DNA of 64,000 nucleotides from Mytilus edulis (GCF_963676685.1 NC_092345.1:45012001-45076000); one strand, 5' to 3'; counted from the first letter of the stretch, positions 4,451 through 43,559 are shown. A program made the numbers and translations. The notes: generated by a model from the letters alone, not told the origin.

Positions 4451-4927
4451 GTGAAAATCTCTTTCAAAAAGAAAAAAAGTTTGAAAATCAATGAGATTAT
4501 TTTTACGCATGCATAAAAATACTTAAGAAAAAACAAATTGTTTAATGCACAGATATATAAATCAGCATATGTGAACAACAATTACAACATACATGTAAAA
4601 TACAAGTTAAAATCTGCATAGATCAGCAGATGTTTCTCCATATTTTGTATTATAAACATTCATCGTTTCCATTCTCAATTGTTTGATACATGGTTTTATA
4701 TTAAACATGAATAGATTTTAAAATGGACCGAAATAATCACGAATTTAAATCATGAGTGTTAAACCACACATCAGAACCAAATAGATATTAAGAGTTGGAA
4801 AATAAAAAAAAACAAAACAAAACATTTATTAATCTTAACTTGACGCTTTTCAAATTAAATTAGTCAAAAATCATAAAAAAAAAAATATGATATTATAAAA
4901 ATAATTACTAAACATTATATGAACGAA

Positions 4928-5372
4928 TCAGTTACAGCTGGGGGAAACGTCCATTTCTCTAATTTTTGCGCTATCATCACATTTCTTGATCGATGTGAGA
5001 ACAATATTTTTCCTCACTAGTGAATAAGCTGTTGTCGGCAAATGATTGGTCGAAATTGTATTGTGACGTTGAATTTTCTTGGTTTTTTTCTGAATTTTCC
5101 TATTGTGACGATATGGTAAAAAGGCGACCATGCTTGATGACGTCACATAAAAAGTAAACATATTTCTTCAAATTTTTGAAAAGGAGGGCTACAAATCATT
5201 AGAGAAACAAAATCCACCACTTTAACTCGTGTAGTACGATTTTTCTCCACTCTCAACTGTTAAAGTTTAATTATTTATAAAGCTTTGCCAGCCTCACGCT
5301 TTAAATATTAAGATTTAACGGTCTCGAGTGGAGAAATATCGTAGCACACTTGTTGCAGTTATGGAATCTATA
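4928..5372. mobile_element. Non-autonomous element ending in a long imperfect palindrome (5209-5370); present in every unit and in the gene C upstream region (~37380-37810)
   Basis: Arms gtgtagtacgatttttctccactctcaactgttaaa / tttaacggtctcgagtggagaaatatcgtagcacac around a ~14-nt loop. A Crypton-like assignment is inference only. Confidence 0.5.
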
Positions 5373-6861
5373 TATCCAAGACCACATCGATTGATCAGCG
5401 CTTATCTCACCATTGATAATGCAGAGTTGTTCGGATTTGTTCCCCAGAATTCTATATTCTTTAGGCGGGTTAATTTTCAGTGAATTAGATCAAATATATT
5501 ATAGGAATATATTTACTCTTTTATAAAAAAAACAATTATGTAAAACATGTCAACTAAAATAGTGTCTAGGTGATGATTTCTATCAGTACCAATTTCAAAA
5601 CTGTCAGTTTGTTACATTACCTTTATAACATCTACGCTAGAAACCACTTTCTGTAAATTCTTACAAAATGTTAAATCTTGTAAAAAATTAAATATAAATT
5701 TATTTCCCTGGATTTGTTGTATTTAAAGTTGGACAAATTCAATATTGCTTCAAATGAACTGAGTAAAATTCTTTTAAGTACGCTTAAAGATTTATCTGGA
5801 AGATTATTTTTTTCATGGCATTGTTGATTGTTTGATAAAAAGTAAAACAAACGGACCAAACTCAAAGGAAAGATCAAAAAGGGGAAGTCCAGAAAAACAC
5901 ACAAAATCAAACTATATCAATCAACGGAAACGAGTGAAAACCAACTGTCATATTTCTAACTTGGTACAAGAATTCAAAAGATTTTAAAACCTGAATAAAG
6001 TTCGTTGTTTTCTTTCCCGCCAACTCTGACCGCTCCAAATGTGTTCCTTTTTATACTTAACTAGCTTTCATTACTACAAAGAGCTTATATTTGTGATAAT
6101 GTTACCCAAAAAAAACCCCACCACATAGGTGGTATACATAGCCACAATCTGGATTCCAATTAGTATTGCTTTTATCAGAGATTGTAATAAACAAAGCTAC
6201 AAATTATATCTTAGGTATACAATTTTTAAACACTTCCATATGTAAGTTAACGATTTGAAAAGTATTTTAGATTTGAATTAACATACTGCTAAAAAGCTAA
6301 TCAATTTCAAATGAATCTCTAGAGTAAAGTCAATAACTCTCAGCTCATGAAATTTTACAAACGAACGCGTCCCTACATAATTCAAAGAAATGGAGGCTTA
6401 TAATTTTTACCTTGAATAATAGAGATTAATTATAAAGAAATAAAGGTCCCGGAAAATTGTCCTTGAACTACCGTACGTGTAATAGAAAATTTGACGATAT
6501 TAATAAATATATTGACTCCAACTTATTTGAAATAATTTCGCAATTAATGGAAAGATTTTTTTGCTAATGATAAGCATCAAAACGCAATGAAATTTAATTA
6601 TACACACAACAGTCATTATGATAGGAATACAAAAGAGAAGACTCTCATACGATTACCACCACCTTTACATGTCATGTTTTTGATGTATGTTATAATATTA
6701 AAACGATGAGAAATACTCTTAATTAATTGCACGAAGTTTCTGGTGGCATCACGAGATAAAGCTTTTCATCTATTCATTACTTACAGACAGACCCTTTACA
6801 AGCAAAGAAAATGTTTTGTCGTCTACACTTAAAATAATTTTTACAAAAAAAAAGAATTTAC

Positions 6862-6919
6862 CTTGTTTATAACAGACAAGACCAGCAAATAACAAAGCAA
6901 TCGTTGCCCTCAGAAGCAT
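6862..6919 (-). CDS. Exon 1 copy, unit 2 (intact signal-peptide exon)
   Basis: Same 58-nt ATG-to-donor exon; lies inside ORF 6770..6952. Expression is unknown. Confidence 0.65.
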
Positions 6920-9539
6920 GCTGTAATTGTTAAGTTCACTATTCGATATCACAACGTTTTTGTTTAGCGAGTTTCTTGTACAGTTGTACTATACAATTTG
7001 CAAATTTCTCCTTTTTATACTTGAGAGAAAACAATGAATTTCTTATGTTCTTTCTATACTCTGACGAGTGTCTTATTCTGATTGGGTGAAAATCTCTTTC
7101 AAAAGGAAAAAAAGTTTGAAAATCAATGAGATTATTTTTACGCATGCATAAAAATACTTAAGAAAAAATAAATTGTTTAATGCACAGATATATAAATCAG
7201 CATATGTGAACAACAATTACAACATACATGTAAAATACAAGTTAAAATCTGCATAGATCAGCAGATGTTTCTCCATATTTTGTATATTTTAATATTTTGT
7301 ATTATAAACATTCACCGTTTCCATTCTCAATTGTTTGATACATGGTTTTATATTAAACATGAATAGATTTTAAAATGGACCGAAATAATCACGAATTTAA
7401 ATCATGAGTGTTAAACCACACATAAGAACCAAATAGATATTAAGAGTTGGAAAATAAAAAAAAAACAAAACAAAACATTTATTAATCTTAACTTGACGCT
7501 TTTCAAATTAAATTAGTCAAAAATCATAAAAAAAAATATGATATTATAAAAATAATTACTAAACATTATATGAACGAATCAGTTACAGCTGGGGGAAACG
7601 TCCATTTCCCTAATTTTTGCGCTATTATCACATTTCTTGATCGATGTGAGAACAATATTTTCCCTCACTAGTGAATAAGCTGTTGTCGGCAAATGATTGG
7701 TCGAAATTGTATTGTGACGTTGAATTTTCTTGGTTTTTTTCTGAATTTTCCTATTGTGACGATATGGTAAAAAGGCGACCATGCTTGATGACGTCACATA
7801 AAAAGTAAACATATTTCTTCAAATTTTTGAAAAGGAGGGCTACAAATCATTAGAGAAACAAAATCCACCACTTTAACTCGTGTAGTACGATTTTTCTCCA
7901 CTCTCAACTGTTAAATTTTAATTATTTATAAAGCTTTGCCAGCCTCGCGCTTTAAATATTAAGATTTAACGGTCTCGAGTGGAGAAATATCGTAGCACAC
8001 TTGTTGCAGTTATGGAATCTATATATCCAAGACCACATCGATTGATCAGCGCTTATCTCACCATTGATAATGCAGAGTTGTTCGGATTTGTTCCCCAGAA
8101 TTCTATATTCTTTAGGCGGGTTAATTTTCAGTGAATTAGATCAAATATATTATAGGAATATATTAATTTTTTTATAAAAAAAAAACAATTATGTAAAACA
8201 TGTCAACTAAAATAGTTTCTAGGTGATGATTTCTATCAGTACCAATTTCAAAACTGTCAGTTTGTTACATTACCTTTATAACATCTACGCTAGAAACCAC
8301 TTTCTGTAAATTCTTACAAAATGTTAAATCTTGTAAAAAATTAAATATAAATTTATTTCCCTGGATTTGTTGTATTTAAAGTTGGACAAATTCAATATTG
8401 CTTCAAATGAACTGAGTAAAATTCTTTTAAGTACGCTTAAAGATTTATCTGGAAGATTATTTTTTTCATGGCACTGTTGATTGTTTGATAAAAAGTAAAA
8501 CAAACGGCCCAAACTCAAAGGAAAGCTCAAAAAGGGGAAGTCCAGAAAAACACACAAAATCAAACTATATCAATCAACGGAAACGAGTGAAAAACAACTG
8601 TCATATTTCTAACTTGGTACAAGAATCAAAAGATTTTAAAACCTGAATAAAGTTCGTTGTTTTCTTTTCAATAAAGTTCGTTGTTTTCTTTTCCGCCAAC
8701 TCTGACCGCTCCAAATGTGTTCCTTTTTTATACTTAACTAGCTTTCATTACTACAAAGAGCTTATATTTGTGATAATGTTACTCAAAAAAAAAAACACCA
8801 CATAAGTGGTATACATAGCTACAATCTGGATTCCAATTAGTATTGCTTTTATCAGAGATTTTAATAAACAAAGCTACAAAGTATATCTTAGGTATACAAT
8901 TTTTAAACACTTCCATATGTAAGTTAACGATTTGAAAAGTATTTTAGATTTGAATTAACATACTGCTATAATGCTAATCCATTTCAAATGAATCTCTAGA
9001 GTAAAGTCAATAACTCTCAGCTCATAAAAATTTACAAACGAACGCGTCCCTACATAATTCAAAGAAATGAAGGCTTATAATTCTTACCTTGAATAATAGA
9101 GATTAATTATAAAGAAATACAAGTCCCGGAAAATTGTCCTTGAATTACCGTACGTGTAATAGAAAATTTGACGATATTAATAAATATATTGACTCCAACT
9201 TATTTGAAACAATTTCGCAATTAATGTAAAGATTTTTTTGCTAATGATAAGCATCAAAACGCAATGAAATTTAATTATACACACAGCAGTCATTATGATA
9301 GGAATACAAAAGAGAAGACTCTCATACGATTACCACCACCTTTACATGTAATGTTTGTGATGTATGTTATAATATTAAAACGATGAGAAATACTCTTAAT
9401 TAATTGCACGAAGTTTCTGGTGGCATCACGGGATAAAGCTTTTCATTTATTCATTACTTACAGACAGGCCCTTTACAAGCAAAGAAAATGTTTTGTCGTC
9501 TACACTTAAAATAATTTTTACAAAAAAAAAAGAATTTAC

Positions 9540-9597
9540 CTTGTTTATAACAGACAAGACCAGCAAACAACAAAGCAATCGTTGCCCTCAGAAGCAT
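9540..9597 (-). CDS. Exon 1 copy, unit 3
   Basis: Intact, with one synonymous change (TTA to TTG); donor GTaaat intact. Confidence 0.65.
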
Positions 9598-12181
9598 GCT
9601 GTAATTGTTAAGTTCACTATTCGATATCACAACGTTTTTGTTTGGCGAGTTTCTTGTACAGTTGTACTATACAATTTGCAAATTTCTTCTTTTTATACTT
9701 GAGAGAAAACAATGAATTTCTTATGTTCTTTCTATACTCTGACGAGTGTCTTATTCTGATTGGGTGAAAATCTCTTTCAAAAAGAAAAAAAGTTTGAAAA
9801 TCAACGAGATTATTTTTACGCATGCATGAAAATACTTAAGAAAAAATAAATTGTTTAATGCACAGATATATAAATCAGCATATGTGAACAACAATTACAA
9901 CATACATGTAAAATACAAGTTAAAATCTGCATAGATCAGCAGATGTTTCTCCATATTTTGTATATTTGAATATTTTGTATTATAAACATTCACCGTTTCC
10001 ATTCTCAATTGTTTGATACATGGTTTTATATTAAACATGAATAGATTTTAAAATGGACCGAAATAATCACGAATTTAAATCATGAGTGTTAAACCACACA
10101 TCAGAACCAAATAGATATTAAGAGTTGGAAAATAAAAAAAACAAAACAAAACATTTATTAATCTTAACTTGACGCTTTTCAAATTAAATTAGTCAAAAAT
10201 CATTAAAAAAAATATGATATTATAAAAATAATTGCTAAACATTATATGAACGAATCAGTTACAGCTGGGGGAAACGTCCATTTCTCTAATTTTTGCGCTA
10301 TTATCACATTTCTTGATCGATGTGAGAACAATATTTTCCCTCACTAGTGAATAAGCTGTTGTCGGCAAATGATTGGTCGAAATTGTATTGTGACGTTGAA
10401 TTTTCTTGGTTTTTTTCTGAATTTTCCTATTGTGACGATATGGTAAAAAAGCGACCATGCTTGATGTCGTCACATAAAAAGTAAACATATTTCTTCAATT
10501 TTTTGAAAAGGAGGGCTACAAATCATTAGAGAAACAAAATCCACCACTTTAACTCGTGTAGTACGATTTTTCTCCACTCTCAACTGTTAAATTTTAATTA
10601 TTTATAAAGCTTTGCCAGCCTCGCGCTTTAAATATTAAAATTTAACGGTCTCGAGTGGAGAAATATCGTAGCACACTTGTAGCAGTTATGGAATCTATAT
10701 ATCCAAGACCACATCGATTGATCAGCGCTTATCTCACCATTGATAATGCAGAGTTGTTCGGATTTGTTCCCCAGAATTCTATATTCTTTAGGCGGGTTAA
10801 TTTTCAGTGAATTAGATCAAATATATTATAGGAATATATTTACTCTTTTATAAAAAAAAAAAAATTATGTAAAACATGTCAACTAAAATAGTGATGATTT
10901 CTATCAGTACCAATTGCAAAACTGTCAGTTTGTTACATTACCTTTATAACATCTACGCTAGAAACCACTTTCTGTAAATTCTTACAAAATGTTAAATCTT
11001 GTAAAAAATTAAATATAAATTTATTTCCTTGGGTTTGTTGTATTTAAAGTTGGACAAATTCAATATTGCTTCAAATGAACTTAGTAAAATTCTTTTAAGT
11101 ACGCTTAAAGATTTATCTGGAAGATTATTTTTTTCATGGCACTGTTGATTGTTTGATAAAAAGTAAAACAAACGGACCAAACTCAAAGGAAAGATCAAAA
11201 AGGGGAAGTCCAGAAAAACACACAATATCAAACTATATCAATGAACGGAAACGAGTGAAAAACAACTGTCATATTTCTAACTTGGTACAAGAATCAAAAG
11301 ATTTTAAAACCTGAATAAAGTTCGTTGTTTTCTTTTCCGCCAACTCTGACCACTCCAAATGTGTTCCTTTTTATACTTTACTAGCTTTCATTACTACAAA
11401 GAGCTTATATTTGTGATAATGTTACCCAAAAAAAACACCACCACATAGGTGGTATACATAGCCACAATCTGGATTCCAATTAGTATTGCTTTTATCAGAG
11501 ATAGTAATAAACAAAGCTACAAAGTATATCTTAGGTATACAATTTTTAAACACTTCCATATGCAAGTTAACGATTTGAAAAGTATTTTAGATTTGAATTA
11601 ACATACTGCTAAAATGCTAATCCATTTCAAATGAATCTCTAGAGTAAAGTCAATAACTCTCAGCTCATGAAATTTTACAAACGAACGCGTCCCTACATAA
11701 TTCAAAGAAATGGAGGCTTATAATTCTTACCTTGAATAATAGTGATTAATTATAAAGAAATACAAGTCCCGGAAAATTGTCCTTGAACTACCGTACGTGT
11801 AATAGAAAATTTGACGATATTAATAAATATATTGACTCCAACTTATTTGAAATTATTTCACAATTAATGTAAAGATTTTTTTGCTAATGATAAGCATCAA
11901 AACGCAATGAAATTTAATTATACACACAGCAGTCATTATGATAGGAATACAAAAGAGAAGACTTTCATACGATTACCACCACCTTTACATGTAATGTTTG
12001 TGATGTATGTTATAATATTAAAACGATGAGAAATACACTTAATTAATTGCACGAAGTTTCTGGTGGCATCACGGGAAAAAGCTTTTCATCTATTCATTAC
12101 TTACAGACAGACCCTTTACAAGCAAAGAAAATGTTTTGTCGTCTACACTTAAAATAATTTTTACAAAAAAAAAGAATTTAC

Positions 12182-12239
12182 CTTGTTTATAACAGACAAG
12201 ACCAGCAAATAACAAAGCAATCGTTGCCCTCAGAAGCAT
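12182..12239 (-). CDS. Exon 1 copy, unit 4
   Basis: Intact ATG, frame and donor; lies inside ORF 12090..12272. Confidence 0.65.
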
Positions 12240-14841
12240 GCTGTAATTGTTAAGTTCACTATTCGATATCACAACGTTTTTGTTTAGCGAGTTTCTTGTA
12301 CAGTTGTACTATACAATTTGCAAATTTCTTCTTTTTATACTTGAGAGAAAACAATGAATTTCTTATGTTCTTTCTATACTCTGACGAGTGTCTTATTCTG
12401 ATTGGGTGAAAATCTCTTTCAAAAAGAAAAAAAGTTTGAAAATCAATGAGATTATTTTTACGCATGCATAAAAATACTTAAGAAAAAATAAATTGTTTAA
12501 TGTACAGATATATAAATCAGCATATGTGAACAACAATTAGAACATACATGTAAAAAACAAGTTAAAATCTGCATAGACCAGCAGATGTTTCTCCATATGT
12601 TGTATATTTGAATATTTTGTATTATAAACATTCACCGTTTCCATTCTAAATTGTTTGATACATGGTTTTATATTAAACATGAATAGATTTTAAAATGGAC
12701 CGAAATAATCACGAATTTAAATCATGAGTGTTAAACCACACATCAGAACCAAATAGATATTAAGAGTTGGAAAATAAAAAAAACCAAAACAAAACATTTA
12801 TTAATCTTAACTTGACGCTTTTCAAATTAAATTAGTCAAAAATCATTAAAAAATATATGATATTATAAAAATAATTACTAAACATTATATGAACGAATCA
12901 GTTACAGCTGGGGGAAACGTCCATTTCTCTAATTTTTGCGCTATTATCACATTTCTTGATCGATGTGAGAACAATATTTTCCCTCACTAGTGAATAAGCT
13001 GTTGTCGGCAAATGATTGGTCGAAATTGTATTGTGACGTTGAATTTCTTGGTTTTTTTCTGAATTTTCCTATTGTGACGATATGGTAAAAAGGCAACCAT
13101 GCTTGATGACGTCACATAAAAAGTAAACATATTTCTTCAAATTTTTGAAAAGGAGGGCTACAAATCATTAGGGAAACAAAATCCACCACTTTAACTCGTG
13201 TAGTACGATTTTTCTCCACTCTCAACTGTTAAATTTTAATTATTTATAAAGCTTTGCCAGCCTCGCGCTTTAAATATTAAGATTTAACGGTCTCGAGTGG
13301 AGAAATATCGTAGCACACTTGTTGCAGTTATGGAATCTATATATCCAAGACCACATCGATTGATCAGCGCTTATCTCACCATTGATAATGCAGAGTTGTT
13401 CGGATTTGTTCCCCAGAATTCTATATTCTTTAGGCGGGTTAATTTTCAGTGAATTAGATCAAATATTTTATAGGAATATATTTACTCTTTTTTAAAAAAA
13501 ACAATTATGTAAAACATGTCAACTAAAATAGTTTCTAGGTGATGATTTCTATCGGTACCAATTTCAAAACTGTCAGTTTGTTACATTACCTTTATAACAT
13601 CTACGCTAGAAACCACTTTCTGTAAATTCTTACAAAATGTTAAATCTTGTAAAAAATTAAATATAAATTTATTTCCCTGGATTTGTTGTATTTAAAGTTG
13701 GACAAATTCAATATTGCTTCAAATGAACTGAGTAAAATTCTTTTAAGTACGCTTAAAGATTTATCTGGAAGATTATTTTTTTCATGGCACTGTTGATTGT
13801 TTGATAAAAAGTAAAACAAACGGACCAAACTCAAAGGAAAGATAAAAAAAGGGGAAGTCCAAAAAAAAACCAACCACACAAAATCAAACTATATCAATCA
13901 ACGGAAACGAGTGAAAAACACTGTCATATTTCTAACTTGGTACAAGAATCAAAAGATTTTAAAACCTGAATAAAGTTCGTTGTTTTCTTTTCCGCCAACT
14001 CTGACCGCTCCAAATGTGTTCCTTTTTTATACTTAACTAGCTTTCATTACTACAAAGAGCTTATATTTGTGATAATGTTACTAAAAAAAAAAACAAAAAA
14101 CACATAGGTGGTATACATAGCCACAATCTGGATTCCAATTAGTATTGCTTTTATCAGAGATTTTAATAAACAAAGCTACAAAGTATATCTTAGGTATACA
14201 ATTTTTAAACACTTCCATATGTAAGTTAACGATTTGAAAAGTATTTTAGATTTGAATTAACATACTGCTAAAATGCTAATCCATTTCAAATGAATCTCTA
14301 GAGTAAAGTCAATAACTCTCAGCTCATGAAATTTTACAAACGAACGCGTCCCTACATAATTCAAAGAAATGAAGGCTTATAATTCTTACCTTGAATAATA
14401 GAGATTAATTATAAAGAAATACAAGTCCCGGAAAATTGTCCTTGAACTACCGTACGTGTAATAGAAAATTTGACGATATTAATAAATATATTGACTCCAA
14501 CTTATTTGAAATAATTTCGCAATTAATGGAAAGATTTTTTTGCTAATGATAAGCATCAAAACACAATGAAATTTAATTATACACACAGCAGTCATTATGA
14601 TAGGAATACAAAAGAGAAGACTTTCATACGATTACCACCACCTTTACATGTAATGTTTGTGATGTATGTTATAATATTAAAACGATGAGAAATACTCTTA
14701 ATTAATTGCACGAAGTTTCTGGTGGCATCACGGGATAAAGCTTTTCATCTATTCATTACTTACAGACAGACCCTTTACAAGCAAAGAAAATGTTTTGTCG
14801 TCTACACTTAAAATATTTTTTACAAAAAAAAAAGAATTTAC

Positions 14842-14899
14842 CTTGTTTATAACAGACAAGACCAGCAAATAACAAAGCAATCGTTGCCCTCAGAAGCAT
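14842..14899 (-). CDS. Exon 1 copy, unit 5
   Basis: Intact ATG, frame and donor. Confidence 0.65.
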
Positions 14900-17487
14900 G
14901 CTGTAATTGTTAAGTTCACTATTCGATATCACAACGTTTTTGTTTAGCGAGTTTCTTGTACAGTTGTACTATACAATTTGCAAATTTCTTCTTTTTATAC
15001 TTGAGAGAAAACAATGAATTTCTTATGTTCTTTCTATACTCTGACGAGTGTCTTATTCTGATTGGGTGAAAATCTCTTTCAAAAAGAAAAAAAGTTTGAA
15101 AATCAATGAGATTATTTTTACGCATGCATAAAAATACTTAAGAAAAAATAAATTGTTTAATGTACAGATATATAAATCAGCATATGTGAACAACAATTAC
15201 AACATACATGTAAAATACAAGTTAAAATCTGCATAGATCAGCAGATGTTTCTCCATATTTTGTATATTTGAATATTTTGTATTATAAACATTCACCGTTT
15301 CCATTCTCAATTGTTTGATACATGGTTTTATATTAAACATGAATAGATTTTAAAATGGACCGAAATAATCACGAATTTAAATCATGAGTGTTAAACCACA
15401 CATCAGAACCAAATAGATATTAAGAGTTGGAAAATAAAAAAACAAAACAAAACATTTATTAATCTTAACTTGACGCTTTTCAAATTAAATTAGTCAAAAA
15501 TCATAAAAAAAATTATGATATTATAAAAATAATTACTAAACATTATATGAACGAATCAGTTACAGCTGGGGGAAACGTCCATTTCTCTAATTTTTGCGCT
15601 ATTATCACATTTCTTGATCGATGTGAGAACAATATTTTCCCTCACTAGTGAATAAGCTGTTGTCGGCAAATGATTGGTCGAAATTGTATTGTGACGTTGA
15701 ATTTTCTTGGTTTTTTTCTGAATTTTCCTATTGTGACGATATGGTAAAAAGGCGACCATGCTTGATGACGTCACATAAAAAGAAAACATATTTCTTCAAT
15801 TTTTTTAAAAGGAGGGCTACAAATCATTAGAGAAACAAAATCCACCACTTTAACTCGTGTAGTACGATTTTTCTCCACTCTCAACTGTTAAATTTTAATT
15901 ATTTATAAAGCTTTGCCAGCCTCGCGCTTTAAATATTAAAATTTAACGGTCTCGAGTGGAGAAATATCGTAGCACACTTGTAGCAGTTATGGAATCTATA
16001 TATCCAAGACCACATCGATTGATCAGCGCTTATCTCACCATTGATAATGCAGAGTTGTTCGGATTTGTTCCCCAGAATTCTATATTCTTTAGGCGGGTTA
16101 ATTTTCAGTGAATTAGATCAAATATATTATAGGAATATATTTACTCTTTTATAAAAAAAAAACAATTATGTAAAACATGTCAACTAAAATAGTGATGATT
16201 TCTATCAGTACCAATTGCAAAACTGTCAGTTTGTTACATTACCTTTATAACATCTACGCTAGAAACCACTTTCTGTAAATTCTTACAAAATGTTAAATCT
16301 TGTAAAAAATTAAATATAAATTTATTTCCTTGGATTTGTTGTATTTAAAGTTGGACAAATTCAATATTGCTTCAAATGAACTGAGTAAAATTCTTTTAAG
16401 TACGCTTAAAGATTTATCTGGAAGATTATTTTTTTCATGGCACTGTTGATTGTTTGATAAAAAGTAAAACAAACGGACCAAACTCAAAGGAAAGATCAAA
16501 AAGGGGAAGTCCAGAAAAACACACAATATCAAACTATATCAATCAACGGAAACGAGTGATAAACAACTGTCATATTTCTAACTTGGTACAAGAATCAAAA
16601 GATTTTAAAACCTGAATAAAGTTCGTTGTTTTCTTTTCCGCCAACTCTGACCGCTCCAAATGTGTTCCTTTTTTATACTTAACTAGCTTTCATTACTACA
16701 AAGAGCTTATATTTGTGATAATGTTACTCAAAAAAAAAAGACCACCACATAGGTGGTATACATAGCCACAATCTGGATTCCAATTAGTATTGCTTTTATC
16801 AGAGATTGTAATAAACAGAGCTACAAAGTATATCTTAGGTATACAATTTTTAAACACTTCCATATGTAAGTTAACGATTTGAAAAGTATTTTAGATTTGA
16901 ATTAACATACTGCTAAAATGCTAATCAATTTCAAATGAATCTCTAGAGTAAAGTCAATAACTCTCAGCTCATGAAATTTTACAAACGAACGCGTCCCTAC
17001 ATAATTCAAAGAAATGAAGGCTTATAATTCTTACCTTGAATAATAGAGATTAATTATAAAGAAATACAAGTCCCGGAAAATTGTCCTTGAACTACCGTAC
17101 GTGTAATAGAAAATTTGACGATATTAATAAATATATTGACTCCAACTTATTTGAAATAATTTCGCAATTAATGGAAAGATTTTTTTGCTAATGATAAGCA
17201 TCAAAACGCAATGAAATTTAATTATACACACAGCCTTCATTATGATAGGAATACAAAAGAGAAGACTTTCATACGATTACCACCACCTTTACATGTAATG
17301 TTTGTGATGTATGTTATAATATTAAAACGATGAGAAATACTCTTAATTAATTGCACGAAGTTTCTGGTGGCATCACGGGATAAAGCTTTTCATCTATTCA
17401 TTACTTACAGACAGACCCTTTACAAACAAAGAAAATGTTTTGTCGTCTACACTTAAAATAATTTTTACAAAAAAAAAAAGAATTTAC

Positions 17488-17545
17488 CTTGTTTATAACA
17501 GACAAGACCAGCAAATAACAAAGCAATCGTTGCCCTCAGAAGCAT
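17488..17545 (-). CDS. Exon 1 copy, unit 6
   Basis: Intact ATG, frame and donor. Confidence 0.65.
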
Positions 17546-20142
17546 GCTGTAATTGTTAAGTTCACTATTCGATATCACAACGTTTTTGTTTAGCGAGTTT
17601 CTTGTACAGTTGTACTATACAATTTGCAAATTTCTTCTTTTTATACTTGAGAGAAAACAATGAATTTCTTATGTTCTTTCTATACTCTGACGAGTGTCTT
17701 ATTCTGATTGGGTGAAAATCTCTTTCAAAAAGAAAAAAAGTTTGAAAATCAATGAGATTATTTTTACGCATGCATAAAAATACTTAAGAAAAAATAAATT
17801 GTTTAATGCACAGATATATAAATCAGCATATGTGAACAACAATTACAACATACATGTAAAATACAAGTTAAAATCTGCATAGATCAGCAGATGTTTCTCC
17901 ATATTTTGTATATTTGAATATTTTGTATTATAAACATTCACCGTTTCCATTCTCAATTGTTTGATACATGATTTTATATTAAACATGAATAGATTTTAAA
18001 ATGGACCGAAATAATCACGAATTTAAATCATGAGTGTTAAACCACACATCAGAACCAAATAAATATTAAGAGTTGGAAAATAAAAAAAAAAAAAAACAAA
18101 ACAAAACATTTATTAATCTTTACTTGACGCTTTTCAAATTAAATTAGTCAAAAATCATAAAAAAAAATATGATATTATAAAAATAATTACTAAACATTAT
18201 ATGAACGAATCAGTTACAGCTGGGGGAAACGTCCATTTCTCTAATTTTTGCGCTATTATCACATTTCTTGATCGATGTGAGAACAATATTTTCCCTCACT
18301 AGTGAATAAGCTGTTGTCGGCAAATGATTGGTCGAAATTGTATTGTGACGTTGAATTTTCTTGGTTTTTTTCTGAATTTTCCTATTGTGACGATATGGTA
18401 AAAAGGCGACCATGCTTGATGACGTCACATAAAAAGTAAACATATTTCTTCAAATTTTTGAAAAGGAGGGCTACAAATCATTAGAGAAACAAAATCCACC
18501 ACTTTAACTCGTGTAGTACGATTTTTCTCCACTCTCAACTGTTAAATTTTAATTATTTATAAAGCTTTGCCAGCCTCGCGCTTTAAATATTAAGATTTAA
18601 CGGTCTCGAGTGGAGAAATATCGTAGCACACTTGTTGCAGTTATGGAATCTATATATCCAAGACCACATCGATTGATCAGCGCTTATCTCACCATTGATA
18701 ATGCAGAGTTGTTCGGATTTGTTCCCCAGAATTCTATATTCTTTAGGCGGGTTAATTTTCAGTGAATTAGATCAAATATATTATAGGAATATATTTACTC
18801 TTTTATAAAAAAAACAATTATGTAAAACATGTCAACTAAAATAGTTTCTAGGTGATGATTTCTATCGGTACCAATTTCAAAACTGTCAGTTTGTTACATT
18901 ACCTTTATAACATCTACGCTAGAAACCACTTTCTGTAAATTCTTACAAAATGTTAAATCTTGTAAAAAATTAAATATAAATTTATTTCCTGGATTTGTTG
19001 TATTTAAAGTTGGACAAATTCAATATTGCTTCAAATGAACTGAGTAAAATTCTTTTAAGTACGCTTAAAGATTTATCTGGAAGATTATTTTTTTCATGGC
19101 ACTGTTGATTGTTTGATAGAAGGTAAAACAAACGGACCAAACTCAAAGGAAAGATCAAAAAGGGGAAGTCCAGAAAAACACACAAAATCAAACTATATCA
19201 ATCAACGGAAACGAGTGAGAAACAACTGTCATATTTCTAACTTGGTACAAGAATTCAAAAGATTTTAAAATCTTAATAAAGTTCGTTGTTTTCTTTTCCG
19301 CCAACTCTGACCGCTCCAAATGTGTTCCTTTTTTTTATACTTAACTAGCTTTCATTACTACAAAGAGCTTATATTTGTGATAATGTTACCCAAAAAAACA
19401 CCACATAGGTGGTATACATAGCCACAATCTGGATTCCAATTAGTATTGCTTTTATCAGAGATAGTAATAAACAAAGCTACAAAGTATATCTTAGGTATAC
19501 AATTTTTAAACACTTCCATATGTAAGTTAACGATTTAAAAGTATTTTAGATTTGAATTAACATACTGCTAAAATGCTAATCCATTTCAAATGAATCTCTA
19601 GAGTAAAGTCAATAACTCTCAGCTCATGAAATTTTACAAACGAACGCGTCCCTACATAATTCAAAGAAATGAAGGCTTATAATTCTTACCTTGAATAATA
19701 GAGATTAATTATAAAGAAATACAAGTCCCGGAAAATTGTCCTTGAACTACCGTACGTGTAATAGAAAATTTGACGATATTAATAAATATATTGACTCCAA
19801 CTTATTTGAAATAATTTCGCAATTAATGTAAAGATTTTTTTGCTAATGATAAGCATCAAAACGCAATGAAATTTAATTATACACACAGCCTTCATTATGA
19901 TAGGAATACAAAAGAGAAGACTTTCATACGATTACCACCACCTTTACATGTAATGTTTGTGATGTATGTTATTATATTAAAACGATGAGAAATACTCTTA
20001 ATTAATTGCACGAAGTTTCTGGTGGCATCACGGGATAAAGCTTTTCATCTATTCATTACTTACAGACAGACCCTTTACAAGCAAAGAAAATGTTTTGTCG
20101 TCTACACTTAAAATAATTTTTACAAAAAAAAAAAGAATTTAC

Positions 20143-20200
20143 CTTGTTTATAACAGACAAGACCAGCAAATAACAAAGCAATCGTTGCCCTCAGAAGCAT
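20143..20200 (-). CDS. Exon 1 copy, unit 7
   Basis: Intact ATG, frame and donor. Confidence 0.65.
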
Positions 20201-22804
20201 GCTGTAATTGTTAAGTTCACTATTCGATATCACAACGTTTTTGTTTGGCGAGTTTCTTGTACAGTTGTACTATACAATTTGCAAATTTCTTCTTTTTATA
20301 CTTGAGAGAAAACAATGAATTTCTTATGTTCTTTCTATACTCTGACGAGTGTCTTATTCTGATTGGGTGAACATCTCTTTCAAAAAGAAAAAAAGTTTGA
20401 AAATCAATGAGATTATTTTTACGCATGCATAAAAATACTTAAGAAAAAATAAATTGTTTAATGTACAGATATATAAATCAGCATATGTGAACAACAATTA
20501 GAACATACATGTAAAAAACAAGTTAAAATCTGCATAGATCAGCAGATGTTTCTCCATATGTTGTATATTTGAATATTTTGTATTATAAACATTCACCGTT
20601 TCCATTCTAAATTGTTTGATACATGGTTTTATATTAAACATGAATAGATTTTAAAATGGACCGAAATAATCACGAATTTAAATCATGAGTGTTAAACCAC
20701 ACATCAGAACCAAATAGATATTAAGAGTTGGAAAATAAAAAAAACCAAAACAAAACATTTATTAATCTTAACTTGACGCTTTTCAAATTAAATTAGTCAA
20801 AAATCATAAAAAAATATATGATATTATAAAAATAATTACTAAACATTATATGAACGAATCAGTTACAGCTGGGGGAAACGTCCATTTCTCTAATTTTTGC
20901 GCTATTATCACATTTCTTGATCGATGTGAGAACAATATTTTCCCTCACTAGTGAATAAGCTGTTGTCGGCAAATGATTGGTCGAAATTGTATTGTGACGT
21001 TGAATTTCTTGGTTTTTTTCTGAATTTTCCTATTGTGACGATATGGTAAAAAGGCGACCATGCTTGATGACGTCACATAAAAAGTAAACATATTTCTTCA
21101 AATTTTTGAAAAGGAGGGCTACAAATCATTAGAGAAACAAAATCCACCACTTTAACTCGTGTAGTACGATTTTTCTCCACTCTCAACTGTTAAATTTTAA
21201 TTATTTATAAAGCTTTGCCAGCCTCGCGCTTTAAATATTAAGATTTAACGGTCTCGAGTGGAGAAATATCGTAGCACACTTGTTGCAGTTATGGAATCTA
21301 TATATCCAAGACCACATCGATTGATCAGCGCTTATCTCACCATTGATAATGCAGAGTTGTTCGGATTTGTTCCCCAGAATTCTATATTCTTTAGGCGGGT
21401 TAATTTTCAGTGAATTAGATCAAATATTTTATAGGAATATATTTACTCTTTTATAAAAAAAACAATTATGTAAAACATGTCAACTAAAATAGTTTCTAGG
21501 TGATGATTTCTATCGGTACCAATTTCAAAACTGTCAGTTTGTTACATTACCTTTATAACATCTACGCTAGAAACCACTTTCTGTAAATTCTTACAAAATG
21601 TTAAATCTTGTAAAAAATTAAATATAAATTTATTTCCCTGGATTTGTTGTATTTAAAGTTGGACAAATTCAATATTGCTTCAAATGAACTGAGTAAAATT
21701 CTTTTAAGTACGCTTAAAGATTTATCTGGAAGATTATTTTTTTCATGGCACTGTTGATTGTTTGATAAAAAGTAAAACAAACGGACCAAACTCAAAGGAA
21801 AGATAAAAAAAGGGGAAGTCCAAAAAAAAACCAACCACACAAAATCAAACTATATCAATCAACGGAAACGAGTGAAAAACAACTGTCATATTTCTAACTT
21901 GGTACAAGAATCAAAAGATTTTAAAACCTGAATAAAGTTCGTTGTTTTCTTTTCCGCCAACTCTGACCGCTCCAAATGTGTTCCTTTTTTATACTTAACT
22001 AGCTTTCATTACTACAAAGAGCTTATATTTGTGATAATGTTACTCAAAAAAAAAAAAAAAAACACATAGGTGGTATACATAGCCACAATCTGGATTCCAA
22101 TTAGTATTGCTTTTATCAGAGATTTTAATAAACAAAGCTACAAAGTATATCTTAGGTATACAATTTTTAAACACTTCCATATGTAAGTTAACGATTTGAA
22201 AAGTATTTTAGATTTGAATTAACATACTGCTAAAATGCTAATCCATTTCAAATGAATCTCTAGAGTAAAGTCAATAACTCTCAGCTCATGAAATTTTACA
22301 AACGAACGCGTCCCTACATAATTCAAAGAAATGAAGGCTTATAATTCTTACCTTGAATAATAGAGATTAATTATAAAGAAATACAAGTCCCGGAAAATTG
22401 TCCTTGAACTACCGTACGTGTAATAGAAAATTTGACGATATTAATAAATATATTGACTCCAACTTATTTGAAATAATTTCGCAATTAATGGAAAGATTTT
22501 TTTGCTAATGATAAGCATCAAAACGCAATGAAATTTAATTATACACACAGCCTTCATTATGATAGGAATACAAAAGAGAAGACTTTCATACGATTACCAC
22601 CACCTTTACATGTAATGTTTGTGATGTATGTTATAATATTAAAACGATGAGAAATACTCTTAATTAATTGCACGAAGTTTCTGGTGGCATCACGGGATAA
22701 AGCTTTTCATCTATTCATTACTTACAGACAGACCCTTTACAAGCAAAGAAAATGTTTTGTCGTCTACACTTAAAATAATTTTTACAAATAAAAAAAGAAT
22801 TTAC

Positions 22805-22862
22805 CTTGTTTATAACAGACAAGACCAGCAAATAACAAAGCAATCGTTGCCCTCAGAAGCAT
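22805..22862 (-). CDS. Exon 1 copy, unit 8 (most distal)
   Basis: Intact ATG, frame and donor. Confidence 0.65.
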
Positions 22863-23103
22863 GCTGTAATTGTTAAGTTCACTATTCGATATCACAACGT
22901 TTTTGTTTAGCGAGTTTCTTGTACAGTTGTACTATACAATTTGCAAATTTCTTCTTTTTATACTTGAGAGAAAACAATGAATTTCTTATGTTCTTTCTAT
23001 ACTCTGACGAGTGTCTAATTATGATTGGGTGAAAATCTCTTTCAAAAAGAAAAAAGTTTTAAAATCAATGTGATTATTTTTACGCATGCATAAAAATACT
23101 TAA

Positions 23104-27759: not shown

Positions 27760-29532
27760 TTACGGTCCTTTTCTAATCAAACATTCTATAACAATGTCAG
27801 GTGCAATATGCAATTGGTATTCATTTGGAACTAGAAGGTCTACGTCGGCTGCTTCATTGTAGAATTTTCGATCTTGCCAATTACATGGGAAAGAACACAT
27901 ACAGTTAACTTAAAATTTTTTTTTATGTAAAACATGTCAACTTAAATAGTGTTTTGGTGATGATTTCTTTTAATATCACTTGCAAAACTGTCAGTTTGTG
28001 AAATAAATTTTAAAAAATATACGCTAGAAACCAATCACTTTCTGTTAATTCTTATAAAATGTTAAAACTTTTAAAACAATGACCAGGTTTAAATGTTGAT
28101 TTTTCCCCTAGATTTGTTGTATTTAAGTTGGACAAATTCAATATTGCTTCAAATATTTTCAGTGCATTTTTGGTATAAAAAATATAAAAATAGACTCAAA
28201 GGAAAGTTCAAAAAGGGAAGGCCATAAAAACTGACAAAATCAAACTTTATCAATCACAATCATATATTTACTACAAATAGCTTTTATTTTTGATAATGTT
28301 ACCCGCAAAAAAAAACCCCACATAAGCCACAATCTGGATTCAAATTTGTATTGTAATTAACAAAGCTATAAAGAATATCTTAGGTATACAATTTTTAAAC
28401 ACTTCCATATGTAAGTAAACGATTTGAACAGCTTTTTTTATATTTGAATTAACTTTCTGATAAAAAAGCTGATCAATTTCAAATGAATCTCTAGAGTCAA
28501 TAACCCTCAGCTCATGAAATTTTTACAAACGAATGCGTCCCTACATAATTCAAAGAAATGGAGGCTTATAATTCTTACCTTGAATAATAGAGATTAATTA
28601 TAAAGAATAGAAGTCCCGGAAAATTGTCGTTAAACTACCATTTGTGTAATAGAAAATTTGACAATATTCATAAATATTAACTCCAACTTATATGAAATAA
28701 CGCGCTTAAACAAAAAAATCATAAACTAATTCCGTAATTAATATAAAGATCTTTTTTGGCTGATGATTAGCAAAGAAATTTAATTATACACACAACAGTC
28801 ATTATGATAAGAATACATAAGAGAAGAATTTCATGCAATTACCACCACCCTTACATATAATGATAGGCAGGTATTACAATGTAGATAGAGAAAATAGATT
28901 ATGTACTATGTGCAATAACAATATTGTAGAAGATAAATACCATGTTATTCTAGAATGTAATAGATATAGTAATGTAAGAAAACTATACATTAAGAAATAT
29001 TATTGGCTATATCCATCCACTTTTAAACTTATACAGTTGTTATCAGTTCACAATGTGAAAGAACTTAATAATTTAGGTAAAATTTTGTTTAATATTGAAA
29101 AAAATCGTAATATGTAGTTGTATTAGTCATTCATCATATGAATTTATTTTCATTCTCCGCCATACATGTATTGTGTATAATTATTCTTATTTATATTACA
29201 CTGACGCATTCAAAAATATTGTAAAATGTATATTCTATAAGCTGTATTGCTTCTGAATAAAGTATACAAAAGATAAGACTCATATAATTACCACCACCCT
29301 CACATAGTATGCGATGTATATTATCACATTAAAACGCTAAGAAATACTCTTAATTAATTGCACAAAGTTACTGGTGGCATCACCTGCTAAAGCTTTTCAT
29401 CTATTCATTACTTACAAGCAAGGCAAATGTTTTGTCGTATACAAATAAACTATTTTCTACAAAAAAGGACTTACCTTGTTTATAACAGACAAGAACAGCA
29501 AACAACAAAGCAATTGTTGCCCTCAGAAGCAT
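27760..29532 (-). pseudogene. Gene B, truncated paralogue: exon 1 29475-29532 (MLLRATIALLFAVLVCYKQ) and partial exon 2 27760-27908 (VNCMCSFPCNWQDRKFYNEAADVDLLVPNEYQLHIAPDIVIECLIRKGP*)
   Basis: Collinear with gene A from ~27762 to ~30165. Homology stops inside exon 2 at CCG TAA; no exon 2 donor and no exons 3-5 found. The acceptor T-tract is largely replaced by an A-run. Confidence 0.85.
28863..29262 (+). mobile_element. 5'-truncated LINE (RTE-X-like): ORF2 C-terminal CCHC region plus 3' UTR, inserted in gene B intron 1
   Basis: GRY..V.RE.RLC..C....VED.YH..L.C..Y...R...I.KYY motif (ORF 28833..29117), AATAAA at ~29256; absent from gene A intron 1. Confidence 0.75.
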
Positions 29533-38282: not shown

Positions 38283-38355
38283 CCAATCAGAATAAGACAC
38301 TCGTCAGAGTATAGAAAGAACATATTAAATTCATTGTTTTCTCTCAAGTATAAAA
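38283..38355 (+). promoter_or_regulatory. Gene C core promoter: CCAAT 38283-38287, TATAAAA 38349-38355
   Basis: acCCAATCAG and TATAAAAAG with canonical spacing, ~110 bp before the ATG at 38466; conserved in A and B. Confidence 0.75.
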
Positions 38356-38465: not shown

Positions 38466-38523
38466 ATGCTTCTGAGGACAGCAATTGTTTTGTTGTTTTC
38501 TGTTCTTGTCTGTTATAAACAAG
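38466..38523 (+). CDS. Gene C exon 1: signal peptide MLLRTAIVLLFSVLVCYKQ
   Basis: ATG...CAAG|GTaaat, 58 nt. Confidence 0.88.
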
Positions 38524-39301
38524 GTAAATACTGTTTTTTTGTAGAAATTATTTTATTTGTAGAGGACAAAATGTGTTCCTTTCTTGTAAGTAATGAATAG
38601 ATGAAAAGCTTTAGCAGGTGATGTTACCAGAAACATTGGAATGCGTTCGTTTGTAAAATTTGATGAGCTGAGAGTTAATGACTTTACTCTAGAGATTCAT
38701 TGAAACTGATAAGCTTTTTAGCAGTAAGTTAATTCAAATGTAAAAAAGCTGTTCAAATTGTTAACTTACACACGGAAGTGTTTAAAAAGAGTATACCTAA
38801 GATATACTTTATAGTTTGTTTATTACAATTTGATAAAAGCAATACTAATTGAAATCCAGATTGTGGCTATGTATGCCACCTATGTCGTGTTGTTTTCGGG
38901 TAACATTATCAAAAATATAAGCTCTTTAAAGTAAATGAAAGCGAGAGTTGAGTATAAAAAGGAACAATTTGGAGCGGTCAGAGTTGGCGGAAAATAAAAC
39001 AACGAACATTATTCAAGTCTTTTGAATGCCTGCACCAAGTTAGAGATGAGACAGTTAATTTTCTCTCGTTTCCGTCGATTTCCCCTTTTTGACCACAAAT
39101 CTATGAAATTATCTATATCTAAACATGGTAATTATTTTAAAAGTTTTAACATTTTGTAAGATTTCACAGAAAGTGATTGGTTTCTAGCGAGGATGTTATA
39201 AATGTAGCAAACTGACAGTTTTGCAATTGGTACTGATAAAAATCATCACCAAGACACTATTTAAGTTGACATGTTTTACATAATTGTTTTTTTTTTTTAA
39301 G

Positions 39302-39461
39302 TGAACTGTATGTGTTCATGGCCATGTAATTGGCAAGAGCGAACATTCTACAATGAAGCAGCCGATGTAGACCTTCTTGTTCCAAATGCATACCAATTAA
39401 AAATCGCACCTGCCACTGTTATAGAATGTTTGATAAGAGAAGGACCGTTCATTGTTAACAG
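39302..39461 (+). CDS. Gene C exon 2: (V)NCMCSWPCNWQERTFYNEAADVDLLVPNAYQLKIAPATVIECLIREGPFIVN(R)
   Basis: poly-T aAG|...AACAG|GTaagt, 160 nt, in frame with exon 1. Confidence 0.88.
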
Positions 39462-39665
39462 GTAAGTGAAAAGCTTTTTCCAGTCGCGTTCATCTTTGTA
39501 AAAATCTAATTTCTATTTTATCGAGAAAAAAAAACCCGACTTTAATTGACTTGTATGATAATTTTAAACCAAAATAAATAACAAAACAATTCATTTAGAA
39601 AAAAAGTTGCACAGTAAATACACGGATATTGTAATTGATGATACATCATGGTTTTCTTTTTTCAG

Positions 39666-39751
39666 ACGAGGTGCCAATAAAGACTTTTATAGATGTATAA
39701 AAATTAACGACGTGTGTAAGAACAGCTTTGTGGTGATAGAAACACCTCTAA
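39666..39751 (+). CDS. Gene C exon 3: RGANKDFYRCIKINDVCKNSFVVIETPL
   Basis: ttttcttttttcAG|...CTAA|GTaagt, 86 nt; lies inside ORF 39607..39807. Confidence 0.88.
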
Positions 39752-40879
39752 GTAAGTTCAATTATCTAAAATGTAGTAAAGAAAAGAGAAATACAGAAAC
39801 GATGTAGATATAAAGGGAAATATATTATAATAGATTTATTGTTTGGTGCTCAATTGCTGGTATCTGTTTTATGAAAATATCAGTTTCATTTGTCTGATTG
39901 TAATTGTATGTTATACTTTGAATTCTCTTACAATGCAGTGTGTCAGGTAACCCTTGGTTTCATCTTGTTTTGTATGGTTCTTTCTAAAGGAATAAATATT
40001 ACATTAAATGATTATTTCTCGGTTTGTATTTTAGTAAATTTATTAGATTGTTTGATCTGTGTTCAAACATAATAAAAATTTGGCATCAAAATTATTTCGA
40101 AAAATAAAAATCAGAAATGTGTCAATCATTCTTTTTTCTCCTTTCGTATTAACATAAAAAGAAACCTTCAAATCTTCTGTGGTTTACTTGATACATAATG
40201 TTCAAAAAACCATTATAAAGAACGATATATAAACCGGTTTCAAGATATTAAACTAACTATCTTTTAAAAGTATTATCAACAGTTCTTTCTACAGTAACAA
40301 ATTAACAGCAGAGATATTCTAATGTTTAATATTCAACATGAGGTGTCAATCAGATTTGGAGTCTTAAGATTCTAAAGATATAATGCAAAACCTTCAACCA
40401 CGACCTTTTAAGTAATGCCAATGATTTTTCTACACTTTACAATAGAATACCTCCTACTCAATTGAAAAATGGAAAACAACGTCTCATTAAACGGGTAACA
40501 GCCTTTCTGTTCCATTACATCTACACAAATCGGAATCGTAGATACATATTCTTGCTTTAGGTCATGCGAAATCTTTCTTTGTAAATAATCGCGCTAATCA
40601 TAGAAAAAAAGATATTCCGTTAATGGTAATTATAATCAAAATGATGGTTTGTTTCGACAGCATATTTGTTGAGTTTGGTGACAGAGAGTCAGTTTTTGTT
40701 TTTCAACTGTGTACTCCTATTGCCAACTTAATTTTGTTGTCATTTGAAGCAGAACTCGTACAAAGCCTTTACAAAGACAAAAATACATCTTTTAAAGAAC
40801 TATAATGTCCATTCCACATAAATCGCTGATGTTTTGTCAATCAATAACCACATATGTGTGGGTGCTTGCATCTCATATT

Positions 40880-41525
40880 TCAAAGAAGTGTCTTAATTTC
40901 TACATAACGCTCGTGTAGGTTCACACTGTACGAATTGCATCACCCTTACACAAAAACTGCTTAGACTTGGTTGTTAAAAAAAAGACAAAATCATATTTCA
41001 GAGTCTTTTCATGTCCCTTTTGTATATATTGATGATCTTCTGTTAACCAATCTTTACATTTCAGTGGGTACTTGCATCTCAGTTATCTCAGTCATTAATT
41101 ACTCTCGTGCATTTTCACTTTTCGAACTTCATCAACGGGCATGTGATCCCTACAAAAAAATCTACTCCAACTGAGTCATAAGGTTATACGATTTAAATCG
41201 ACGCTACATAAGTTTACGGTCATGATCACACATCGGTTAACCGATACAATGTTTCTATGTCTCCACTCAAAAGCGATATGTTTTCATTGTTTGGTATTAT
41301 CTTTAGATACCAGAACAGTCGTATGATCTGTAAAATTACTGACTGTGTCCTATTACCTGTTGTGAAAGTTTGTTTGAGTGATAACCTTCACGGTGGGTCA
41401 TACATGCACAGCAGGAGACGTTTATCCTGTCGACGCTTCCGATTTCGATCCTATTTGAACTTATGTGAATCTCTCAGTTTGTGTTTGTTAGCTTTATTTG
41501 TCGTCCCTGTCGATTTATGAATTTC
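40880..41525 (+). mobile_element. Highly decayed Penelope-like retroelement fragment in gene C intron 3
   Basis: Absent from gene A intron 3; tatattgatgatctt (YIDDL) motif and a 3' tail resembling the 26715 repeat. Confidence 0.45.
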
Positions 41526-41677
41526 GAAAATCGATTATCAGCAATATTTTTAAGAATACTCTAGCCAGCCCGTTAAACTTCATTTGATTTTTAAACATAT
41601 TGTTTTGTTATATTAAATATTTCGTATTCCAAATAATTACCAAATTAAATTTTATGGTGGTTTATTTTGTATCACAG

Positions 41678-41755
41678 TCAGACAGGATTTTCCTCCAAAT
41701 TTGTGCGACATCTGTACTCCTGGAAATCTTACCAGCAAGCCACAAGTATGGGTCG
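41678..41755 (+). CDS. Gene C exon 4: (I)RQDFPPNLCDICTPGNLTSKPQVWV
   Basis: ttttgtatcacAG|...GTCG|GTaagt, 78 nt. Confidence 0.88.
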
Positions 41756-42109
41756 GTAAGTACACTTTACATGTTATAGTAAAACAAATATTGGATCGCA
41801 TTGTTAGGTCTCTAGTCTGTAGTCAAACGTTTTACAGGTACGACTGCAGACCAACATGGCACGAATACAGCCATTGACATAACATGATTTTACCAACTCC
41901 CTCGACACGATTATAATCGATAATTTTCAAATTACAAGTTTTCATTTAAACCCGCCTAGAATCGAACTCACTACCACCTGCTCTCTACTTTTGAAACTTT
42001 ACCGACACATTTCGATATAATAAATTTCAACACCACATGCAAATGTAACTGTAATATTAAGAGATATTTCCATCAATATTTATCAAGAAAAAACAAAATT
42101 AACCTATAT

Positions 42110-42275
42110 TAAAAAGAAGATGTGGTATGATTGCCATTGACACAACCGTCCAGAAGAGACCAAAATGACACAGAAATTAACACCAATAGGTCAACGTACG
42201 GCCTTCAACATGGAGCAAAGCCCCTACCGAATAGTCAGTTTTAAAAGGCCCCGAAATTACAATGTAAAGCAATTA
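42110..42275 (+). repeat. Mg1-like Mytilus interspersed repeat; reverse copy within ~50897-51410
   Basis: aagaagatgtggtatgattgcca...gtacggccttcaaca...aaaaggccccgaa; reverse complement at 51260-51405. The family name is recalled, not searched. Confidence 0.6.
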
Positions 42276-42917
42276 TGATGACCTAAAGTTGCTTTAATCT
42301 ACGTCATTTAGACTGTGATCGAAAGTGGTCTCATTGGCAATTATATCACAGTTCCTTGTTTGTTTATAGCTTACTCAAAAACTTTATACACAAATATAAC
42401 AATATCATTTTCAACACATTGTTTATATTGTAGAGCAATTATGCATAATAATGAACATTGTGTTTTCTCTCCCTATTAAACTAATCATAGATTTTCTTTT
42501 GAACAGAGAATCGACGTTCCTATTTTAATTATTGTTTCAGCAAAAGAGAACACTTGTGAGTATGGTTCCGTACACTTAAGGTTTTTTTTTCATGAATAAT
42601 TACTACAGAATTCCAGAAGTTATCTAAGTATTGATAAAGATTTTCTTAACAATGTACACGTCTTGAAAATAATCTGTATATTGTGCATTTTGTTTTATAT
42701 TAAGTACAAATCAATAATAAGTCAATAAATAACATCGTTGTATGATAAAAAAAAAACCAAAACCCTTAGACATTGCGTCAATAAAAGTGACCGTGTCGTG
42801 TCGTTCTATTTTTATAAATTTTGTAAAGTATTTTTTAAAATTTTTCCCCCTTTGAAAAAAACCATCAAGGTGTAGCATAAATTTAAAAACAACTTTTGCT
42901 ATTATTTGTTTTGTTAG

Positions 42918-43165
42918 ATCTAGGATGCGATGTACCAAAGAACTGTCCTGTACAACGTCGTACAGACATTCAATGTAATGGATGTGAAGAGAACCAACCA
43001 AATGATGATATAGCCTGCAGCACTTGTAAAAAGGAGGAAAGAAAAAAGTGGGAATATCAAAGGACATATTCCGGAGAGAAGAAGAAATCAACCTACGGTT
43101 CATATTCCGGGGAGAAGAAGAAATCAACCTATGGTTCACATTATATACGTTCTTTCAGAGGCTAA
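42918..43165 (+). CDS. Gene C exon 5 (terminal): (D)LGCDVPKNCPVQRRTDIQCNGCEENQPNDDIACSTCKKEERKKWEYQRT(YSGEKKKSTYGS)x2 HYIRSFRG*
   Basis: ttgttttgttAG| phase 1, in frame with exon 4; lies inside ORF 42896..43165. Total CDS 630 nt = 209 aa + stop. Confidence 0.85.
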
Positions 43166-43227: not shown

Positions 43228-43233
43228 AATAAA
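43228..43233 (+). promoter_or_regulatory. Candidate polyadenylation signal of gene C
   Basis: First AATAAA, ~60 nt after the stop codon; weak evidence in AT-rich DNA. Confidence 0.45.
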
Positions 43234-43559
43234 TATCAGCAAATATTCTTTAGTTATCCTTATAATATAGACAACTTTCGATTTCGTGCAATTTCCATTG
43301 AAATTTCCCATGCTTATGTTCTAACGTTATAAATGACCTCGTGTATGTCAATTGACACCGCGTCTACCGGTGTAATGATACTTTGCTATTGGGAATTGAT
43401 TTCACTTTTACTATGCATAGGCTTTACTCTTTTTGAATTTGGAATTATGCCTAAAAGGAGGCAAAACTGTTTTTGAACAATAAAATCTTTGCTTTACAAT
43501 CCAAATATTGCAGTAGATAGACGTTTAATCGTTCGTATCATCTAGTATAGGTTAATTTT

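Follow-up and report, generated by a model that had tools for sequence, protein, structure and literature searches.

A six-exon gene of Mytilus edulis and its family of predicted secreted barrel proteins with a microexon-built linker

We analysed a stretch of 64,000 nucleotides (nt) from Mytilus edulis (GCF_963676685.1 NC_092345.1:45012001-45076000), hereafter the window, and in it the gene at 38466..43165 on the plus strand, hereafter gene B, whose identical database product is labelled P0001. Gene B is a real spliced gene of six exons that is already annotated, and is a member of a large Mytilus family that lacks a Pfam entry and has a predicted known fold and a linker built from microexons. 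The exon structure, its splicing, the poly(A) site, the paralogs, purifying selection and the cysteine pattern are established here. The gene itself was in RefSeq; the family placing, the predicted fold and the shared gene design are new.

Gene B has six exons, one of them a microexon

A sequence-only reading of the window had described gene B as a complete five-exon gene for a secreted, Cys-rich protein of 209 amino acids (aa). The five exons that it named (38466-38523, 39302-39461, 39666-39751, 41678-41755 and 42918-43165) are all present with GT..AG introns; they follow one another in phases 1-2-1-1 and join into the 209-aa frame, which has three CxxC motifs and 13 Cys downstream of C22. 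The lengths of exons 1-4 in gene A, a neighbour on the minus strand, equal those of gene B as that reading had said (58, 160, 86 and 78 nt). The exon count was wrong: a sixth exon of 15 nt lies at 42541-42555, and the product has 214 aa. Four sequencing runs, X1, X2, X5 and X24, the last with raw RNA sequencing (RNA-seq) reads, were mapped on 38200-43700; their codes carry no tissue label. The search for runs listed none recorded as RNA, and splicing is evident from this mapping. The parts of the gene are:

38349..38355, plus strand: predicted TATA box (TATAAAA); the same element precedes each of the other nine copies of exon 1 in the window
38466..38523, plus strand: coding region of exon 1, for residues 1-19 (plus 1 nt) of the predicted signal peptide
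39302..39461, plus strand: exon 2, 160 nt; end of the signal peptide, C24, C28, C62 and predicted barrel strands A-E
39666..39751, plus strand: exon 3, 86 nt; predicted strands F-G, C83 and the subfamily-specific C90
41678..41755, plus strand: exon 4, 78 nt; C111-x-x-C114, a glycosylation sequon at N118 and predicted strand H
42541..42555, plus strand: exon 5, microexon of 15 nt in symmetric phase 1-1; linker from barrel to Cys module
42918..43165, plus strand: coding region of exon 6 up to the stop codon; module of six Cys (C136-C169) and basic Lys/Tyr/Ser tail
43065..43142, plus strand: 36-bp tandem repeat, 2.2 copies, encoding a 12-residue unit of the tail
43228..43242, plus strand: AATAAA signal at 43228 and poly(A) site, marked in one X1 contig by a loose poly(A) end behind 43242

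Spliced joints were found at the gene B introns in these runs. Transcript contigs of X2 and X5 start near 38392-38403, and contigs of the same two runs contain the joint of exons 1 and 2, which occurs in none of the X24 reads. Raw X24 reads cross the joint of exons 2 and 3 (45 reads) and that of exons 3 and 4 at 39751->41678 (26 reads, and a further 34 in which exon 4 starts at a variant position). The 15-nt insert is carried by 51 of the 53 raw X24 reads that span 41755->42918, and it is also present in contigs of X1, X2 and X5. In the DNA the microexon is flanked by a pyrimidine tract with CAG and by GTGAGT; the pattern YAG-15nt-GTRAG occurs a single time in the 1162-nt intron, at this very site. 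The microexon was likewise found in all eight close paralog loci examined. We also observed that a high-copy repeat at 42105-42250, in intron 4, draws many unrelated RNA reads.

The translation of the six exons is identical to P0001 over 214/214 residues, D128 being replaced by AKENTY through the microexon. P0001 is XP_071155783.1, an uncharacterized M. edulis protein of 214 aa whose record gives no function, domain or family name. Thus, the gene has an annotation already, and the 209-aa form would be a minor product at best; an open reading frame track may indeed have missed the gene, which nevertheless was not unrecorded. Most X24 reads are 90-99% alike to gene B, with 3 of 408 reaching at least 99%, a level reached by 188 of 700 X5 contigs. 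The reads therefore come mostly from other alleles or sister genes, and what they prove is less the level of gene B itself than how the subfamily is spliced. Between the runs, summed contig depths, a poor measure of expression, vary strongly.

The product is predicted to be a secreted, disulfide-stapled barrel

The proposal that the protein is likely secreted, extracellular and disulfide-bonded agrees with our results: P0001 has a single hydrophobic stretch, at residues 5-17, with none later, and ten Cys are nearly invariant. The signal peptide is predicted to be cut after C22. An AlphaFold run on a 50-row family alignment, the model used throughout, predicts a compact lipocalin-like barrel stapled by disulfides, and behind it a module of six cysteines and a basic, disordered tail; the modelled barrel is eight-stranded and antiparallel, as the lipocalin fold requires. 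A run with 20 close sequences had given a predicted local distance difference test (pLDDT) score of 42.6 and no usable Foldseek match, and was superseded. Sequence searches of the PDB with three profiles gave 0 matches at E<=10, and Pfam has no family match to P0001 at E<=10.

In the 50-row alignment, C24, C28, C62, C83, C111 and C114 of the barrel and C136, C142, C152 and C166 of the module are kept in 91-100% of rows. The three CxxC motifs might suggest a zinc-finger or thiol-redox protein; two of them lie ten residues apart in exon 6, and weak Pfam rows name zinc-ribbon and B-box models (E 1.2 and 2.6). The motifs of exon 6 are not, however, kept as units (C152 in 45/46 rows, C155 in 37/45, C166 in 40/44, C169 in 19/33), and C111/C114, the sole CxxC kept as a pair, lies within the barrel. 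C155 and a Cys in column 165 are lost together in P0027, P0029, P0030 and P0046, as expected of a disulfide pair, which argues for disulfides and not for a zinc finger. Since the protein is also likely secreted, the zinc or redox explanation is very improbable. Gene B itself has Ala in column 165 and Cys at 169 and 90, the latter found in 11/46 rows; from this pattern we infer that one of the 13 Cys (C90, C155 or C169) is a spare thiol.

The predicted fold raises the question of a lipocalin-type carrier, with a small hydrophobic molecule (lipid, pigment or pheromone) inside the barrel. We applied the motif definitions (SCR1 G-x-W and others, SCR being structurally conserved region) in the excerpted text of PMC5040251. 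P0001 has no G-x-W; at the strand A site of SCR1 the column reads E/G-R/K-T-F, and any G-x-W within the first 60 residues occurs in 4/50 rows. K129, encoded by the microexon, comes after strand H and is a candidate for the basic SCR3 residue at the end of that strand; the position is K or R in 24/39 rows. The Pfam lipocalin profile matches 0/50 rows at E<=0.5. The barrel is short, at about 110 residues, and the best structural match and nearest solved structure, Tp0751 (PDB 5JK2), is a barrel without a pocket according to the same excerpt. Relative to lipocalins, P0001 adds seven barrel Cys, the six-Cys module, the microexon linker and the basic tail. A carrier function thus appears doubtful.

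A likeness to DUF7042-type domains had also been suggested, and this lead pointed in the right direction, although any relation would be remote. P0001 has no Pfam match, and three of the 50 rows (P0029, P0027 and P0048) match DUF7044 (PF23071) in the barrel region with E 2e-4, 3e-3 and 0.1, all below the 27-bit gathering cut-off (best 21.8 bits). The nearest Atlas clusters carry DUF7042/7043/7044 domains with scores of 0.86 and 0.84, under the lead limit of 0.9, and the family profile against one DUF7043/7044 sequence gave a probability of 0.8%. None of the eight genome matches of DUF7044 lies at the gene B cluster, nor did the DUF7042 genome search hit it. The architecture differs too: where P0001 has a single barrel, the M. 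edulis locus L037 combines DUF7043 and DUF7042 in at least 638 aa (L037:1258-3171, a single open frame with a predicted signal peptide). APCDD1, described in the excerpted text of PMC10193966, resembles P0001 as an extracellular, disulfide-bonded barrel protein with weak lipocalin likeness, but has two barrels and a membrane anchor; it is not among the 50 structure matches listed, by which a shared fold is not excluded.

A large family in Mytilus

A profile search over 1.84 billion representatives returned 28 proteins at E<=0.001. Twenty of these were looked up, of which 17 are named Mytilus proteins and three are unnamed ENA records; the named matches of further sequence searches were all from Mytilus, five species in all. 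Queries with three distant members matched the last exon at 44 distinct places, spread over 13 contigs; these are uncurated candidates and represent a lower bound. The distant genes P0057, P0034 and P0059 share the intron phases of gene B where mapped, and their linkers, too, are encoded by symmetric small exons (15 nt in P0057; 15, 27 and 12 nt in P0034; 15, 18 and 12 nt in P0059). In several database models of close relatives, for example P0010, P0011, P0017 and P0022, either the microexon or the signal exon is missing, so that part of the family is wrongly annotated. One or more of the alignments exclude P0003 (787 aa, with a reverse-transcriptase fusion), P0009, P0012, P0016, P0025, P0026 and P0028, models that are fused, frameshifted, incomplete or very long. 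As a side observation, the models of P0003, P0041 and P0044 are fused to a reverse transcriptase or bear the wrong names 'uvrA' and 'ADAM22'. The literature searched does not mention the family, although supplements of other papers may list XP_071155783.1 under other identifiers; PMC11667028 was found to contain none of the family motifs.

Over the barrel, the ratio of nonsynonymous to synonymous substitution rates (dN/dS, Nei-Gojobori) between gene B and six paralogs is 0.18-0.71, no pair being clearly above 1 at these small counts. Rows for the Cys module of L018 were left out, as that exon was not mapped. Such a family could also encode secreted recognition or defence proteins of mucosa or haemolymph, in which expanded, diverse barrels bind different microbial or particle targets. 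The 44 candidate loci on 13 contigs, the recent tandem duplication, the fixed Cys frame of distant members that are 19-49% identical to P0013, dN/dS near 0.7-1.0 in some paralog pairs and a cationic tail with an Arg-Gly end, a possible amidation signal, would all fit. But the top pairwise dN/dS over the mature core, 1.05, is based on five synonymous changes and so gives no sign of positive selection, and Pfam detects no lectin, C1q or other recognition domain in P0001 and the 50 rows. We regard a recognition or defence role as somewhat unlikely.

The basic tail and a possible surface-binding role

Residues 170-214 of P0001 form a tail with an isoelectric point (pI) of 10.0, a net charge of about +8 and six Tyr. 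Its 12-residue unit is present in 1-10 copies in close paralogs and in 0 copies in P0021. The paralog that comes next, P0016 at L014 (G000:C2:45082000-45091999), is 310 aa long and carries ten of these units, whereas gene A carries one. P0021, at L018 (G000:C2:44127000-44136999), combines a barrel 85-90% like that of gene B in exons 2-3 with 14 mature Cys and an acidic tail. The motif S-x-E is that of a secretory kinase, and a C-terminal Arg-Gly can signal amidation. The latter, together with repeat units bordered by KKK, would suit a tail that is the precursor of short peptides, freed at Lys-Lys-Lys sites and the last of them amidated; acidic-tail paralogs, however, retain the STY core without KKK and end in KR, which leaves little probability for such a precursor.

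The role that we tentatively favour, and consider quite possible, is that of a surface-binding constituent of secreted extracellular material, such as that of foot, mucus or mantle, with the tail as its anchor. The six-exon mRNA would give a 214-residue, likely secreted protein; the outer surface of the barrel would bind partners; the Lys/Tyr/Ser tail would anchor the protein by charge, perhaps by 3,4-dihydroxyphenylalanine (DOPA); and the spare Cys (C90, C155 or C169) would be free to cross-link or reduce. Several observations weigh against this role. Foldseek found no match to the 50-row model at E<=0.001, and the match to Tp0751 has 8% identity and lies little above the 7-8 that is usual for unrelated models. 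The tail is not a constant of the family, as that of P0021 is acidic (protein pI 4.7) and many distant members have little or no tail, and Tyr makes up only about 5% of the mature chain. Subfamily transcripts in all four tissue-unlabelled runs give no pointer to one gland, and a foot-protein name is absent from all named matches.

This absence also bears on a more specific alternative, that gene B encodes the M. edulis form of a named mussel foot protein (mfp), mfp-15 to mfp-19; kinship with Cys-rich foot proteins had been suggested by the sequence-only reading. DeMartini et al. 2017 is reportedly the source of mfp-7 to -19. In the portions available of PMC7018715 and PMC9999432, mfp-16 to -19 are Cys-rich cuticle proteins. 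The excerpted text of PMC7018726 gives 94 aa for Mcfp16, 72 aa for Mcfp18, 203 aa for Mcfp17 and 249 aa for Mcfp15, of which the last two are close to P0001 in size and are basic with predicted signal peptides; the searched terms were not found in its supplement. The lengths of Mcfp16 and Mcfp18 are far shorter, and P0001 matches, at any offset tried, at most 6/24 residue positions quoted there for Mcfp17 and at most 3/6 for Mcfp15, a comparison based on lengths and scattered quoted positions of Mcfp15-18. Kinship with mfp-16, -17 or -18 is therefore not supported, and identity with a named foot protein is hardly to be expected. What P0001 has in common with mfp-6 and mfp-16 to -19 is that it is likely secreted, Cys-rich and basic, with a Tyr/Lys-rich stretch that resembles the composition of DOPA proteins; no sequence kinship was found, and the lengths and quoted positions set it apart from Mcfp16-18.

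The surface-binding role can be extended to a broader proposal, which is speculative and unlikely to hold in full. A mussel-expanded family would comprise dozens of secreted proteins made of a barrel plus a cysteine knot, with 1-3 symmetric microexons in the linker; the subfamily in the window would be an unrecognised byssus or coating component joining a binding barrel, a spare thiol and a DOPA-type tail of variable length; and the output of gene A would be raised by eight stacked copies of promoter plus signal exon (see below). If DOPA in the tail and a byssus or coating location were true, this would add a folded multi-domain component to materials whose known proteins are mostly short or repetitive.

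Paralogs and a promoter array in the window

Exon 2 of gene B has 12 genome matches at E<=1. Seven of them share a span of about 230 kb: three are in the window, in genes A, B and C, and four lie outside it. Genes A and B and the four outside the window match RefSeq proteins exon by exon, so that this span holds six intact copies besides gene C, which is truncated. Farther away are L018, a seventh copy that is intact and maps to RefSeq, at about 0.9 Mb, and L019, an eighth close copy, at about 19 Mb. The related features of the window are:

342..4280, minus strand: gene A, intact paralog; exons 4223-4280, 2715-2874, 2425-2510, 1471-1548 and microexon 342-356
2876..23103, minus strand: eight tandem copies, about 2.65 kb each and 97.9-99.3% alike, of the gene A promoter (TATA), intact signal-peptide exon 1 and intron 1
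27763..29532, minus strand: gene C, truncated paralog; exon 1 intact, exon 2 broken after 49 codons

The last exon of gene A, which is P0004 (XP_071153231.1), falls just outside the window. The units of the array are spaced 2639-2678 nt apart, and each ends at the pyrimidine tract directly before exon 2. The unit junction is present in contigs of a further run, X17, at depths of 438 and 102 versus about 110-140 for single-copy contigs. This indicates that the array is not only a feature of the assembly, although X17 may be related to the assembled sample. The copies could act as stacked alternative promoters.

No later exons of gene C were found in the window; its intron 1 has an insertion near 28860-29260 that is not in the intron of gene A. 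In the RefSeq isoform XP_071153233.1 (P0018), exon 1 of gene C (29475-29532, minus strand) is joined to the body of gene A. This implies an intron of about 26.6 kb across the array, but it may equally be an artefact of read mapping.

Short frames resembling Tc1/mariner and retroelements were seen by eye at 54062-54834 (minus), 61226-61720 (minus), 62385-62636 (plus) and 30673-31068 (minus), with no supporting Pfam match at E<=0.01. At 57714-59904 on the plus strand, DUF3504 matches above the cut-off were obtained in two frames (E 1.6e-7 and 3.8e-11), a stretch that we take to be a broken Crypton-type element.
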